IMG/VR virus record: IMGVR_UViG_3300001594_000003
Coordinates: 1-64,000 of that record
DNA from: a virus
Taxonomy: Duplodnaviria > Caudoviricetes
Reading direction: 5' to 3' (one strand)
DNA: 64,000 bases
Below the pieces are notes generated by a model that had not been told where the DNA came from, did not search any database, and saw nothing but the letters and a program-made list of their open reading frames with translations. Position 1 is the first letter of the stretch. Each line of letters begins with the position of its first letter. Made by a program: the position numbers and the translations under genes. This document shows positions 53,997 to 62,976 of the stretch, in pieces.

Positions 53997-54475
53997 CAGA
54001 CCAGCCTGAAATCTTTTACGTTAGGGCAGATAAGACCTGGGGTAAGGCAACTGCTTTGCCTCAGGATGCCTACCAGATAACGGAAGAAACGTTCAATCTA
54101 CTGCAAGACAACGCGGACTGCCTGGACATTTCCATAGTCGACAGCACCCTTCATATCAGCGTTTCACTTATTTCCTATAAGAGAAAAGCACTTCATCTAG
54201 TGGAGCTGACTGTCAGCAATTATCGCGCAGGTGAAGACCAGCTAGCTGATCTGCGGGATTGTGTAATAGCAGAGACCAGTTTCTTCGACAGTGCTAACGG
54301 CAACATATTGGATGCGGTTGAAGCAAAATCCCTATTCGCGTACTTTGTGAGCCGTCAGAACGAGTTGCGTCGCGTCGCATATGTGTACAGTGATCTGGTG
54401 CGTAAAGCCCAATCGCCGGAAGACGTAGACGCGGCACTTGAAAGTTTAGACCAGACTCTTAAAGGTATCCCATGA
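53993..54475 (+). CDS. Putative tail fibre assembly protein
   Basis: Follows the fibre gene; C-terminal A.S.EDVDA motif. Confidence 0.45.
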   Translation: MTDQPEIFYVRADKTWGKATALPQDAYQITEETFNLLQDNADCLDISIVDSTLHISVSLISYKRKALHLVELTVSNYRAGEDQLADLRDCVIAETSFFDSANGNILDAVEAKSLFAYFVSRQNELRRVAYVYSDLVRKAQSPEDVDAALESLDQTLKGIP

Positions 54476-55872
54476 GCGTAAACGGTGTGTCCGACTCTCC
54501 CTTGCTGGAGAGAGCAGTCTACGGAGATCAGTCAAGAGTGCCGATTGGCGCACCGGTGATTACCAACAAGAAGCAACTGAACTCCAAGGAAATTCAGCTT
54601 CTCATCACTGGAAACGATCTTACCGAGCCGCTGCTCAACCAGTTTGAAACGTTCGGCAATGATGGAAAAGAGGCGTATCGCAAGCCCGAAGAAAATGGGT
54701 TAGATTTTCGTGATCGCCAGAATCTAAACGATAGGCTCATAGCAGAATGGGCTTATGACAGAGACACCGGCGACCTAGTGCTGGTGCGTACAAACAAAGA
54801 AGAACTGCGCTTACCCGGATTCATGCGTCAAGATGACTTCGGCATAGGCGCTACAGGTCCACGCGGTCTTCCTGGGCGTGACGGCAAAGACGGCTTTGAT
54901 GGACGTGACGGCAAAGACGGTAATCCCGGGTGCGCTGGACCACAAGGTCCGGTTGGTAGCATGGGTACTTCTGGTCGAGAAGGTAACCCCGGAGTTATAG
55001 GCATCGAAGGTCCCGAAGGTTGCGAAGGTTCTACGGGCGATCGTGGTGTTATGGGTCCTCAAGGTCGTCCCGGTTTCGAAGGCTCACGTGGTCTGACTGG
55101 ACCTTCTTGTGGTGATGATAAGCAAGGCAGTGAAGGCGCACAAGGCGAAGAATTCGGCCTTGGTGTCATGTTCGGCCTTGCAGCGATGAATGATCGTCGC
55201 GTAGCCATAATGGGACTAGACGATGACGGTATCGACGCAGTTGCTCCACCTGGAGGATGGGGAGGTGCAACAATTCCTCCACCTACTTCCACACCTGCCG
55301 TACCGCCTCCACCGCCGCCTACAGGAACTGCCAAGGTAGACTTATGTACTAACCATGGTGATGTTAAGCAGTCTTGCGGTAATACAGTCAACGCTTGGTC
55401 GAGCACATGGGCAAACTATGATGGACCAAACGGTACAAAAGGTATTTCGAGTCTTCCGCGTCCTAACCAGATCGTGGAGTACATACCAGATAGTCTCGTT
55501 ATGTGCGGTACGTTGGCACCCAACGCTTCGTATCTGATCGAACTGACGACACCGCGGGGCGTAGCGTCTTCGTTGTTTGCCAACTGTTCTATTGTAGGAC
55601 AGACAGATTACCCAGGAGGCACTGCGAAGATTCGTCTGACACCTACGAAACCGACCAGCTTGCGTGTTCGTTATCTGTCGAACGCTGCGAAGATTCCGTT
55701 CTGGGTAGCGCTGCGCATTCTCAACGCGGATACGGGCGAAGTGCTGTATCGTACAGGTCAGAACGCATATAACTCAGGGTTGCAGCCCTCCAAGCCTTAC
55801 GATCCTAATGCAAACACGTACATGACCGATCCAAACTGGCGTGGTAACGCAACAGTCAAGCATTACAACTAA
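54472..55872 (+). CDS. Collagen-like fibre protein 1 (about 29 Gly-X-Y triplets, globular C-terminal domain)
   Basis: Gly-X-Y run, Pro linker, beta-rich C-terminus. Confidence 0.88.
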   Translation: MSVNGVSDSPLLERAVYGDQSRVPIGAPVITNKKQLNSKEIQLLITGNDLTEPLLNQFETFGNDGKEAYRKPEENGLDFRDRQNLNDRLIAEWAYDRDTGDLVLVRTNKEELRLPGFMRQDDFGIGATGPRGLPGRDGKDGFDGRDGKDGNPGCAGPQGPVGSMGTSGREGNPGVIGIEGPEGCEGSTGDRGVMGPQGRPGFEGSRGLTGPSCGDDKQGSEGAQGEEFGLGVMFGLAAMNDRRVAIMGLDDDGIDAVAPPGGWGGATIPPPTSTPAVPPPPPPTGTAKVDLCTNHGDVKQSCGNTVNAWSSTWANYDGPNGTKGISSLPRPNQIVEYIPDSLVMCGTLAPNASYLIELTTPRGVASSLFANCSIVGQTDYPGGTAKIRLTPTKPTSLRVRYLSNAAKIPFWVALRILNADTGEVLYRTGQNAYNSGLQPSKPYDPNANTYMTDPNWRGNATVKHYN

Positions 55873-55881
55873 GGTTGACTT

Positions 55882-56568
55882 ATGGCAGGTTTAACTCGCA
55901 TTCCAACTTCGATGATCTTCGCGCCTGGTCAACCAAGTGAAACCGAAGTCGTCGTCGATAACGAACGCCTAACAACAGGCGAACCATTAGAATCAGATAT
56001 CAGTGAGATTGCCTCCGGTTACTATGACTGGCAACTCGGTATCCTATCACTAACAATGTACAACGGTAACATCGTTCGTATATCCGGCTTCCCTACGCCA
56101 GGGAGCATTCCACAAGGTCCTACCGGTCCTCAAGGTTTGCCGGGTAAAGATGGACGTGATGGACGAGACGGTAAAGACGGTGCGCCCGGCCCTCAAGGTT
56201 GTGAAGGTCCACCTGGTCCACAAGGTGCACCGGGCTCTACTGGTCCTGACGGACGCGATGGTGCCATGGGACAACAGGGTCCAAGAGGATGCCCGGGTCC
56301 TAAAGGTCCACCCGGAGAGCGCGGTCCAACTGGTCCACAAGGTGCTCTCGGCCCAACAGGTCCAAGGGGAGAACAGGGTCCAGCTGGCAGACCCGGTGCA
56401 CAAGGCCCAGCAGGTACTGCAAACATCATCGTGTCTACCTCTGATCCGGGTGCAGTAGGCGGTGGTTGGTTGTGGGTTAACCCTGGCGCAGTCGCTCCTC
56501 CTACAGGAAGCACTGGTGGTGGCACTACAGAGCCTACCGATCCCCCGGTGGGGACCCCATGGCCATGA
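55882..56568 (+). CDS. Collagen-like fibre protein 2 (about 34 triplets)
   Basis: Gly-X-Y run; tip [15 protein letters not shown]. Confidence 0.88.
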
Positions 56569-56610
56569 GACAGTACCAATGAACTAATGGGCCAACTAAT
56601 AGTAACAATA

Positions 56611-61983: not shown

Positions 61984-61991
61984 GGTGAATG

Positions 61992-62162
61992 ATGGCTGTT
62001 CGACTACGTGTTCGTGATAAGCCTGACGGAGCGTGGATCGAAAACTTTGATAAGCTAGGCTGGAAAGTTCGTAAGGCCGATAACTCCGGGTGGATTCAAA
62101 TGCACCCGGGGAACACCAAAGTTCGATCCTCTGATAATACCAGATGGCTAAACGTTAAGTGA
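61992..62162 (+). CDS. 56-aa triple-Trp-repeat protein, paralogue of the adhesin N-terminus (not in the ORF track)
   Basis: MAVRLRVRDKPDGAWIENFDKLGWKVRKADNSGWIQMHPGNTKVRSSDNTRWLNVK; GAGGTG RBS. Confidence 0.8.
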   Translation: MAVRLRVRDKPDGAWIENFDKLGWKVRKADNSGWIQMHPGNTKVRSSDNTRWLNVK

Positions 62163-62169
62163 GGAATTT

Positions 62170-62976
62170 ATGGGTGGATTAACAAGACCGCCGCTCGCCA
62201 TGATTGACCCAGGGTTCGGGGCAACAAACGATCAGGTGCGCTTCAACGGTGAATTGCTTGAGTTGCAGTCTGACGATGACAACGAAAGTAATTCTCAAGT
62301 TGTAAATGGAGAGTACGACTCCGAAACTGGTACCTTGAAGTTAACTAAGGAAGATCGATCTACAATCATCATTCGTGGTTTTCTCACTAAAGCTAGTGTG
62401 GGTGTTGGCCCAACGGGTCCGACTGGTCCGCAAGGTAAGCCTGGGTCAAATGGGCGCAACGGTAAAGACGGACGTACTGGCGCTCAGGGTTGTATGGGAC
62501 CAAAGGGTGACCCAGGTCCAGCGGGCCCCACAGGTCCAGCGGGTCCACCCGGTACTGTAGGTAGTTTGGGTGCAACCGGCCCGACTGGTCCTACGGGCCC
62601 GACTGGTCCTGCAGGTGCAGACGGTAAAGCTCCAGTATTTGGTGTCGGAGAATCTGCTGCATACGAGCTGTTTGAGAATGCAACTCTGAAATGCTGGGGC
62701 CGCTTCACTTCAACAGAAGCCGCTGTATTCCAACGCATTGTATTCCCAGAAGCGTTCAAGACAGACAAGCCTCGCGCCATGTTTTTGCAGTTCATCGATC
62801 CGACCAGTAATGTAAAGGATGCTATACGTGTCGATCGAATCAACAAGGGTAATGCCGAGTTGAGTGTGGTCGAAAGTAAACTGCCGCAAGTTCCAGACGG
62901 TACGGGTGAAACAGTACCCGCACCTGCGACTGGCTGGGATTTTTACTGGTTCGTTATTGGCTCTGACACTCCGTAA
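62170..62976 (+). CDS. Collagen-like fibre protein 4 (about 25 triplets) with a tail-fibre-tip domain
   Basis: Gly-X-Y run; LKCWGR..IVFPEAF...FYWFVIG tip motif. Confidence 0.88.
   Translation: MGGLTRPPLAMIDPGFGATNDQVRFNGELLELQSDDDNESNSQVVNGEYDSETGTLKLTKEDRSTIIIRGFLTKASVGVGPTGPTGPQGKPGSNGRNGKDGRTGAQGCMGPKGDPGPAGPTGPAGPPGTVGSLGATGPTGPTGPTGPAGADGKAPVFGVGESAAYELFENATLKCWGRFTSTEAAVFQRIVFPEAFKTDKPRAMFLQFIDPTSNVKDAIRVDRINKGNAELSVVESKLPQVPDGTGETVPAPATGWDFYWFVIGSDTP

Follow-up and report, generated by a model that had tools for sequence, protein, structure and literature searches.

What do four neighbouring collagen genes of a phage build, when each of them carries a cysteine at the same step of its helix? 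The question is raised by a window of 64,000 nucleotides (the whole stretch analysed, positions 1 to 64,000 of the viral record IMGVR_UViG_3300001594_000003), which holds a baseplate/tail-fibre module from a PaBG-like (Baikalvirus) jumbo phage. Judging from sequence patterns, we propose with a probability of about 0.5 that the four chains, called c1 to c4 here, would form three fibres, namely a mixed c1/c2 triple helix and homotrimers of c3 and of c4, in which the ring of cysteines would be a site for cross-linking or docking. The collagen genes and their neighbours are as follows (t10 is the tenth Gly-X-Y triplet of a helix, t20 the twentieth, and so on).

51684..53996, + strand: conserved 770-aa protein, directly 5' of the gene at 53993..54475; called 'tail-collar fiber protein' in PaBG
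53993..54475, + strand: 160-aa protein of no known family, between the 770-aa gene and c1
54472..55872, + strand: c1, 466 aa; 47-aa N-terminal extension, then anchor (nt 54613-54822); Gly-X-Y run of 29 triplets (residues 126-212, nt 54847-55107); Cys codons 54931 (t10), 55021 (t20), and 55108 (Cys213, in the Gly slot of t30); Pro-rich linker, then jelly-roll head (weak model)
55882..56568, + strand: c2, 228 aa; 34 unbroken triplets (residues 79-180, nt 56116-56421); Cys codons 56200 (t10) and 56290 (t20); short C-terminal motif ending L-W-V-x-P
56618..57508, + strand: HNH_3 homing endonuclease, an insertion that separates c2 from c3
57525..58046, + strand: c3, 173 aa; 23 triplets (residues 79-147, nt 57759-57965); Cys codon 57843 (t10); C-terminal motif ending L-W-V-K-P
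58060..61983, + strand: adhesin-like protein, 1307 aa; first ~55 residues a triple Trp-containing repeat module, then a Gly/Ser linker
61989..62162, + strand: 57-aa protein, with homology to the triple-Trp module at the N terminus of the adhesin
62170..62976, + strand: c4, 268 aa; 25 triplets (residues 80-154, nt 62407-62631); Cys codon 62491 (t10); beta-sandwich head (residues 155-268)
62986..63471, + strand: 161-aa protein of no known family, found after c4 in all relatives

All four chains match the Pfam collagen family PF01391 above its curated cut-off (E 5e-18 to 1e-12), and no Pfam domain beyond Collagen was found in them. In a profile search, the collagen chains also match phrog_8745 (E 4e-53 to 5e-29), one of the profiles that define the phage collagen-like tail fibre class (PHROGs 8745, 38766, 6320, and 5073), and they belong to this class both by profile match and by their place in a baseplate/tail-fibre module. 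In PaBG, the collagen genes sit downstream of PAAR, gp25-like, and baseplate-wedge genes; the orthologues of c1 to c4 are gp241, gp240, gp239, and gp236, each labelled 'tail fiber protein'. Counterparts occur in Lu11, HRDY3, NCTB, Erwinia phage Y3, and Dickeya phage JA11 as well, and the number of collagen paralogues per locus ranges from 2 to at least 6 across relatives. PaBG and its relatives have direct orthologues with the gene order, helix lengths, and cysteine positions of the window, while differing from it in sequence (63%–79% identity) and in the endonuclease that separates c2 and c3 in the window. c1 to c4 are best explained as tail fibres with collagen stalks, from a jumbo myovirus of the PaBG/Lu11/NCTB/Y3 type. 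Database labels relating to the virion are found on Y3 gp110 and JA11 gp096 ('virion structural protein'), and the collagen fibre proteins are not among the 14 MALDI bands of the PaBG proteome (PMC7412058). Collagen register, cysteines, and chain composition go unmentioned in PMC7412058, PMC6143709, and the database records of the relatives.

The surrounding genes are conserved to different degrees. The 160-aa protein is present in PaBG-type genomes and missing from those of Y3 type, and the 57-aa protein is kept before c4 in PaBG and in the relatives L006 and L008. Counterparts of the 161-aa protein (Y3 gp103 and JA11 gp089) are annotated 'tail fiber protein'. The HNH_3 endonuclease is absent from this site in PaBG and lies outside the fibre system.

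An earlier note, made from the letters of this DNA, had described four collagen reading frames with Cys codons at 54931, 56200, 57843, and 62491, and its description of them holds. In c1 to c4, exactly 8 residues separate a YD...GF anchor from the first Gly, and a Cys occupies the X position of t10; in c1 and c2, X of t20 holds another Cys (55021 and 56290), three of the four chains start with M-x-G-L-T-R, and the helices of c1, c2, c3, and c4 measure 29, 34, 23, and 25 triplets. The third Cys of c1 also exists, but it falls outside the 30-residue period once read into it, as Cys213 stands 29 residues past the second Cys, in a Gly slot, where it terminates the uninterrupted Gly-X-Y run. Beyond it, Gly-X-Y resumes in frame and continues to slot 34 (in c1 at large, to slot 33-34), in agreement with the 34 triplets of c2.

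The register is also kept among relatives. When distant relatives were aligned with one representative per 50%-identity cluster (85 in all), 71 had a Cys at t10-X, which is far beyond chance. This is the least variable non-Gly column of the alignment (entropy 0.90 bits), and the 101 Cys found in 4,686 X and Y positions are distributed as 71 at t10-X, 15 at t20-X, 4 at t28-Y, and 11 elsewhere. The ninth residue before the first Gly is Phe in 78 and Leu in 6 of the 85 representatives, a constancy which indicates that the length of the linker is fixed. The beta-rich N-terminal anchor, the 8-residue linker, and the Cys in X of t10 thus make up a design common to all four chains; the anchor module is found again between short collagen runs in other proteins, and so it probably lies in line with the collagen helix. 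Triplets 1 to 11 form a conserved proximal helix module with Asp or Asn in Y of t4 to t7, Cys in X of t10, and Pro in X of t11. Helix lengths are quantised, with peaks at 23 (n=10), 25 (n=7), 29 (n=20), and 34 (n=15) triplets, and c3 (23 triplets) and c4 (24–25) each keep precisely to a length of their own throughout the phage group.

The t10 Cys is present in every orthologue examined from PaBG, Lu11, HRDY3, NCTB, and Y3, and in all of those from JA11 with the exception of c1. Where it is replaced, the substitute is P, A, V, R, Y, L, W, or D; Ser and Thr do not occur, which fits a thiol-specific role. It is lost singly in c1 of JA11 and in c3 of L012, L016, and L018, and it is missing from all six collagens of L014; these losses indicate that it is not indispensable.

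The earlier note had taken the common register as a sign that different chains assemble together, and this part of its argument survives for c1 and c2 only. The t20 Cys is concordant between these two chains in 30 of 30 non-redundant genomes, being present in both in 14 and in neither in 16. On the tree of the neighbouring 770-aa gene, which was used as a phylogenetic marker of the module, four changes are needed and every one is concerted; the corresponding sign test (p 0.125) is underpowered, and c1 and c2 are adjacent genes. In the sister pair NCTB/L049, c1 and c2 both differ by point changes in an otherwise orthologous context.

Charges provide a further line of evidence. The contacts between chains of one triple helix fall at the offsets Y(n)-X(n) and Y(n)-X(n+1), and it is at these offsets that opposite charges are in excess in cognate compared with shuffled c1-c2 pairs (z 6.5 and 7.8, respectively). 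The excess is retained in 15 lineages of less than 70% identity (z 5.8 and 6.4) and under shuffling within clades (z 5.6 and 5.3, p<2e-4). No such signal was found for c1-c2 at X-X, Y-Y, or other offsets, nor for any other pair of paralogues, c3 and c4 included. On a charge score that is a crude +1/-1 count and draws its signal mostly from triplets 4 to 7, a c1 homotrimer is negative in 13 of 26 lineages and a c2 homotrimer always positive, while the best c1/c2 mixture is positive in all 26 and consists of one c1 and two c2 in 20 of them. In the window itself, the c1 and c2 homotrimers both do well (21 and 30, with 26 for the best mixture), which counts against mixing. In the NCTB clade, net charge is reversed in c1 and c2 alike. 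Breaks of the Gly pattern within the first 29 slots occur in c1 of 5 of 26 genomes and in none of 59 c2, c3, and c4 genes. Chains of a heterotrimer are expected to have equal length in one register, as is found here (anchor and linker in common, slots to 33-34 in c1 and 34 in c2), and to complement each other at helix contacts, as is found as well (z 5.3–7.8). We therefore regard c2 as the likely partner chain of c1 on the basis of these sequence comparisons.

In the three-fibre arrangement that we favour, each chain would start with the beta-rich anchor in line with the helix, followed by the 8-residue linker and the proximal 11-triplet module. c1 and c2 would share one mixed triple helix, 34 triplet slots long and bearing the c1 head, with the simple charge score preferring one c1 to two c2; the fold matches of this weakly modelled head are CBM-, lectin-, and TNF-like, all with E of at least 3e-3. 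c3 is probably a homotrimeric stalk of 23 triplets, and its L-W-V-K-P end may hold the 1307-aa adhesin. Such docking may find some backing in a complex prediction of three c3 chains with adhesin residues 1-75, which gave a weak ipSAE of 0.51 (best control 0.00). c4 is probably a homotrimeric receptor-binding fibre, with 25 triplets and a pyocin-foot-like head (model pLDDT 82–90) whose best fold matches are the R-type pyocin fibre feet 6ct8 and 6cl6 (E 5e-3, prob 1.0, TM 0.3).

At 0.286 nm per residue, the 29 residues that follow the anchor would place the t10 Cys about 8.3 nm along the stalk, with their side chains facing outward. Inside a single helix these side chains would be too widely spaced to bond, so they most likely form a thiol ring at fixed height. 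Once lysis has brought the particle into oxidising water, the ring would link its stalk to an adjacent stalk or to a baseplate protein, either by a disulfide or, less likely, through a metal. A second ring, at t20 of the c1/c2 fibre, would lie one turn of the 10/3 supercoil beyond the first. The Cys pairs of the 770-aa neighbour appear and vanish together, which suggests that disulfides are used in this module. Speaking against the scheme, no gene for a thioredoxin-fold protein, DsbA, or Erv1 was found in PaBG or in this record. Nor does a three-chain ring alone account for the t20 Cys being kept or lost in c1 and c2 jointly; a direct c1-c2 disulfide between separate rods would be a simpler account of this shared gain and loss. 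The comparisons show conserved sequence, quantised lengths, co-varying Cys, and co-evolving charges; the mixed helix, its stoichiometry, and the chemistry of the cross-link are what we infer from them.

That direct disulfide belongs to an alternative in which all four chains make separate homotrimers and the c1 and c2 rods stand next to each other, in register, on a common platform, joined by inter-trimer disulfides at t10 and t20 and by complementary charges that serve rod-to-rod contact. A t20 Cys present in both or neither chain is the classic signature of a disulfide pair, c1 and c2 have complementary net charges that are reversed together in the NCTB clade, and a spacing of 10 triplets, being one 10/3 turn, would point both Cys at the same neighbour; moreover, the prokaryotic and phage collagens studied have one chain type, as in recombinant EPclA (PMC3368898). 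Lateral contact, however, should also involve X-X and Y-Y pairs at equal height, whereas co-evolution is seen for Y-X pairs alone, at offsets 0 and +1. Three identical c1 chains would furthermore stack their Gly breaks at one level and, by score, repel each other in half of the lineages, and we consider these paired rods unlikely. It is very unlikely, in our estimate, that the homotrimers make no c1-c2 contact at all and that the proximal module with its Cys is a plug for a single non-collagen socket in the baseplate, held by disulfide, metal, or packing, with co-variation reflecting a lineage-wide trend in the use of virion Cys. The sharing of anchor, linker, and 11-triplet module by all paralogues would suit such a plug, as would the loss of Cys10 from single paralogues while others keep theirs and the occurrence of Cys pairs in the 770-aa neighbour in 9–11 of 14 lineages with the t20 Cys and 0–1 of 16 without. 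But the 770-aa protein showed no Cys that is conserved throughout, and the two paired Cys of the adhesin module do not follow Cys10 of c3. A lineage trend also leaves unexplained both the offset-specific charge signal, which survives shuffling within clades, and the 30/30 concordance, given that the Cys of the neighbour are only partly concordant.

The Cys might instead be no cross-link at all and serve as a site of covalent modification, such as an S-linked sugar or lipid, or as a transient assembly or redox-sensing thiol, for instance in a covalent intermediate with an assembly factor. This is highly improbable even though the Cys is exposed, single, and never swapped for Ser or Thr, and no oxidase is encoded: no modifying enzyme is seen in the conserved module, the context of the Cys is unconserved apart from Gly and the following Pro, and independent sites would not be gained and lost in c1-c2 pairs. 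Scarcely credible is the remaining proposal of the earlier note, that all four chains mix, or form a C1q-like bouquet locked by disulfides or Cys3-metal nodes inside the helix. The anchor and Cys10 register common to the four chains speak for it, but c3 and c4 keep their exact lengths and have no charge co-evolution comparable to that of c1-c2 with another paralogue, the number of paralogues varies between loci, and a bouquet is contradicted by the lack of both an N-terminal Cys and a helix break at t10. By standard triple-helix geometry, X side chains of the same triplet are too distant for a disulfide or a shared metal, making such a node within one trimer sterically unlikely, and the cystine knots described have two Cys in each chain (PMC12107170).

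Day et al. 2018 (PMC6143709) stated that it is unknown which proteins form the 'hairs' of hairy jumbo myoviruses; stalks of residue-exact length with a Cys ring at fixed height are candidates for these proteins, as well as a candidate means of holding several different fibres in one baseplate. With considerable doubt, we suggest that c1/c2 could be a natural heterotrimeric phage collagen, the first outside animals, and that Cys rungs could make the three fibres a cross-linked adsorption organelle corresponding to these 'hairs' or small appendages. In such an organelle, the N-terminal beta anchor would set the c1/c2 register, and the exposed Cys rings, one supercoil turn apart, would act as covalent rungs that hold the fibres together after release. 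To our knowledge, a mixed triple helix is undocumented for any collagen outside animals. Collagens of bacteria and phages are used as biomaterials that can be designed, and the ones studied assemble from a single type of chain. A natural two-chain collagen, if true, would fold in the bacterial cytoplasm without hydroxyproline and take its register from a small N-terminal module and charge pairs, offering a ready-made system for registered heterotrimers, an old goal of collagen design.

Among known systems, C1q, the collectins, and adiponectin also combine collagen stalks with globular heads, and an odd Cys per trimer links their trimers into oligomers. In the C1q/collectin type, this Cys precedes the helix and a kink sends the stalks apart, whereas c1 to c4 have no Cys before the helix and no Gly break at or near t10. 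The R-type pyocin foot (6ct8, 6cl6) has the fold closest to the c4 head and binds Pseudomonas surfaces in a contractile-tail machine, as the c4 head probably does too, but the pyocin fibre is without a collagen stalk and the fold match is weak (E 5e-3, TM 0.3). Type I collagen is a heterotrimer of animals, and such heterotrimers resemble c1/c2 in their chains of equal length, single register, and Cys at a fixed helix distance. The same likenesses apply to type IV, a heterotrimeric collagen also used as comparison (PMC12107170). In animal collagens, however, NC domains select the chains, and cystine knots (the type III C-terminal knot and the type IV knot) need two neighbouring Cys in each chain, located where the helix ends or is interrupted, so that three disulfides join the chains (PMC12107170). 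The phage chains instead have a single Cys at t10, and again at t20 in c1 and c2, in X of an uninterrupted run, and they would assemble in the bacterial cytoplasm without hydroxyproline; c1 of Lu11 type has two Cys at its helix end, where c1 of the window has only Cys213. Finally, EPclA-D, the side tail fibres of E. coli O157 prophages, are phage fibres with a Gly-X-Y stalk as well, comprising an N-domain that caps them, a stalk ~30 nm long, and, at the C terminus, a domain for trimerisation or binding (PMC3368898). Recombinant EPclA has one chain type, a coiled-coil segment, and PfN/PfC domains (PMC3368898), whereas c1 to c4 are set apart by four paralogues, residue-exact lengths, a conserved helix Cys, and signs of two-chain mixing.

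The window comes from a relative of Pseudomonas phage PaBG, and four intact ORFs in its baseplate and tail-fibre module match Pfam Collagen. The genes considered are the following.

51684-53996: 770-aa protein directly upstream of the collagen module (the 770-aa neighbour)
54472-55872, + strand: collagen gene c1
55882-56568, + strand: collagen gene c2
56618-57508: HNH_3 homing endonuclease with a C-terminal HTH
57525-58046, + strand: collagen gene c3
58060-61983: 1307-aa adhesin
61989-62162: 57-aa ORF
62170-62976, + strand: collagen gene c4

At the nucleotide level the sole match is 91% over 102 bases. 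The gene order is the same in PaBG, where it reads 770-aa 'tail-collar fiber protein', small ORF, gp241, gp240, gp239, a protein of about 1,200 aa, a 56-aa ORF and gp236. The source record, a 149-kb IMG/VR contig estimated to be 56% complete, contains exactly four members of the family. The endonuclease lies between c2 and c3 at a site where PaBG has no gene; spacing at this site is equal in a near-identical contig (L005). A script check confirmed that all four chains carry the beta-rich N-terminal anchor and an 8-residue linker, followed by helices of 29, 34, 23 and 25 Gly-X-Y triplets. It also recovered a Cys in the X position of triplet 10 (Cys10; codons at 54931, 56200, 57843 and 62491) and a second Cys at triplet 20 (Cys20) in c1 and c2. 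The third Cys of c1, which the earlier note placed on a 30-residue period, is in fact 29 residues past the second and occupies the Gly slot of triplet 30.

The PaBG orthologues keep every Cys of all four chains. The same four orthogroups, with helices of 29, 34, 23 and 24-25 triplets, are found in Lu11, HRDY3, NCTB, Erwinia phage Y3 and Dickeya phage JA11, and the Cys register extends to these phages as well, Cys10 being present in all of their orthologues with the sole exception of JA11 c1. An anchor-only profile run against 1.84 billion cluster representatives retrieved 164 proteins, 90 of which have one full N-terminal anchor; this full profile search was used instead of a word-index search with the c2 anchor, which returned only 3 proteins. 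No solved structure matched the anchor by sequence. In the wider family the X position of triplet 10 is Cys in 71/85 relatives and shows the lowest variability of all non-Gly columns, followed by the Asp at triplet 7 (Y) and the Pro residues at triplets 2 and 11 (both X). Cys10 is never replaced by Ser or Thr, and Cys is nearly missing from the helices except at X of triplets 10 and 20 and Y of triplet 28. The helices come in four sharply defined length classes. Besides JA11 c1, loss of Cys10 from a single paralogue is seen in c3 of three relatives (L012, L016 and L018), and a distant relative (L014) lacks it in all six of its collagens. These six anchor-plus-collagen genes (L014:1240-10618, on a 364-kb assembly contig) encode helices of 29-51 triplets with no Cys, and one of them is followed by a gene for a Phage_tail_APC-type chaperone.

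The second half of the anchor recurs in other proteins between short collagen runs, suggesting that the anchor is a trimeric module in line with the triple helix. In P0017, P0027 and P0118 it alternates many times with runs of 6-9 triplets, in the manner of beads on a string. The c2 class has grown to three genes in one lineage (L008:9989-14572 and L054), two of which bear large heads (602 and 920 aa) with periodic Cys. In the records of Alcaligenes phage Afa-NA1 (L072, 78 kb) and Salmonella phage Sen-NF (L073, 108 kb), the fibre module is of the Y3 type and agrees with it in gene order and sizes; such short records around a jumbo-phage module suggest partial or chimeric assemblies.

X-position side chains of a collagen helix face outward. 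From standard helix parameters we estimate that the X residues which the three chains place in one triplet, related by a rotation of about 105 degrees and a rise of 0.29 nm, hold their beta-carbons roughly 0.8-0.9 nm apart, a distance that neither a disulfide nor a shared metal could span within one helix. In known collagen knots each chain contributes two Cys, placed at a helix end or in an interruption (PMC12107170). On this distance and the two-Cys rule, the Cys ring most likely acts outward from the helix. The c1 chains of Lu11 and HRDY3 (L002:2796-3482 and L003:2566-3486) have two helix-end Cys four residues apart, in Y of triplet 28 and at slot 30; in contrast to the lone Cys in the window, such a pair could form a true three-disulfide knot.

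Cys20 co-varies in c1 and c2 across relatives. Phage records, IMG/VR, metagenomes and assemblies supplied 57 loci, and a cut-off of less than 97% identity in the 770-aa neighbour left 30 genomes; Cys20 occurs in both chains in 14/30, in neither in 16/30 and in one alone in 0/30. On the tree of the neighbour gene it changes four times, each time concertedly in c1 and c2, giving a sign test p of 0.125, since four contrasts can never reach 0.05. Transfer of c1 and c2 as a block could yield such concordance, but carriers are spread over more than one clade of the c2 tree, and in the sister pair NCTB/L049 the Cys20 codon differs in both genes by point changes while the surrounding triplets are orthologous. 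Gene conversion is likewise unlikely, since the triplets around position 20 are dissimilar in c1 and c2.

A mixed c1/c2 triple helix is the reading that we favour, with a probability of about 0.5. Opposite against like charges (+1/-1) were counted from Y(n) of one chain to X(n+d) of the other in cognate and shuffled c1-c2 pairings, and an excess of opposite charges appeared in cognate pairs only at d=0 (z 6.5) and d=+1 (z 7.8); X-X pairs, Y-Y pairs and other offsets gave no excess in the same c1-c2 test. In the collagen triple helix these two offsets correspond to interchain contacts, lateral at 0 and axial at +1. The excess persists in a set of 15 lineages sharing less than 70% identity (z 5.8 and 6.4) and when pairings are shuffled only inside each of four major clades (z 5.6 and 5.3), and the remaining five paralogue pairs give only scattered values (z at most 3.6). 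As a homotrimer, c1 scores negative in 13/26 lineages and c2 positive in every one; the best c1/c2 mix, usually one c1 to two c2, scores positive in all 26. Gly breaks occur in c1 in 5/26 genomes, against 0/59 for the other classes. The unequal lengths of 29 and 34 triplets do not bar a mixed helix, because c1 resumes in-frame Gly-X-Y past its slot-30 Cys and continues through slot 33-34, and short c1 forms share with c2 the motif that then follows the helix. Together, the charge excess at contact offsets, the frequent negative score of c1 homotrimers, the exclusive Gly breaks of c1 and the equal slot number would favour chains that share one helix. However, most of the charge signal lies within triplets 4-7, and the window's own c1 and c2 both score well as homotrimers. 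It is also conceivable, though rather improbable, that c1 and c2 form two separate rods joined by a direct disulfide, which would account more simply for the both-or-neither pattern of Cys20.

The 770-aa neighbour has two Cys pairs (residues 120/127 and 280/302) that are gained or lost jointly across relatives, suggesting that disulfides are used in this fibre module; the pairs are commoner in Cys20 lineages (9-11/14 vs 0-1/16). A search for a phage thiol oxidase with PF00085 and PF01323 gave no match in PaBG or the window's record, which would place Cys oxidation after lysis; PF04777 also gave none, but its control was equally blank and this carries no weight as an absence. As a partner for Cys10, the 770-aa neighbour was rejected for lack of a universal Cys column. 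So was the Cys pair of the adhesin N-module, which does not track c3 Cys10: it is lost with it in L012 and kept in L016 and L018 despite the loss in c3.

The c4 head (residues 155-268) is confidently predicted as a beta sandwich whose best structural matches, all weak, are R-type pyocin tail fibre foot domains of Pseudomonas, and for the c1 head the predicted fold is a jelly roll, whose CBM-, lectin- and TNF-like matches are likewise weak. The 57-aa ORF encodes a stand-alone homologue of the triple-Trp repeat module at the adhesin N-terminus (58060-58230; invariant Trp14, Trp22, Arg25, Asn29, Trp32, Arg44 and Trp51) and is kept upstream of c4 in PaBG, L006 and L008. A predicted complex of three c3 chains with adhesin residues 1-75 reached an ipSAE of 0.51 (best control 0.00), with a partner pLDDT of at least 71 and contact agreement between runs of at least 95%. 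This complex prediction, which gave scores and no interface, has no bearing on the Cys, and lends weak support to the possibility that a c3 trimer binds the adhesin N-module.

In the PaBG (PMC7412058) and Dickeya (PMC6143709) papers these genes are labelled as tail fibres, and Day et al. (PMC6143709) describe the proteins that make up the 'hairs' as unknown. None of the papers searched joined 'hairy Myoviridae' with 'collagen'. The earlier note envisaged heterotrimers of different chains or a C1q-like bouquet; this reading is partly supported, with sequence evidence for co-assembly of c1 and c2 only, and neither mixing of all four chains nor a bouquet is supported. EPclA, a characterised phage collagen fibre, is a trimer built from one chain type (PMC3368898), whereas the helix proposed here would combine c1 and c2.
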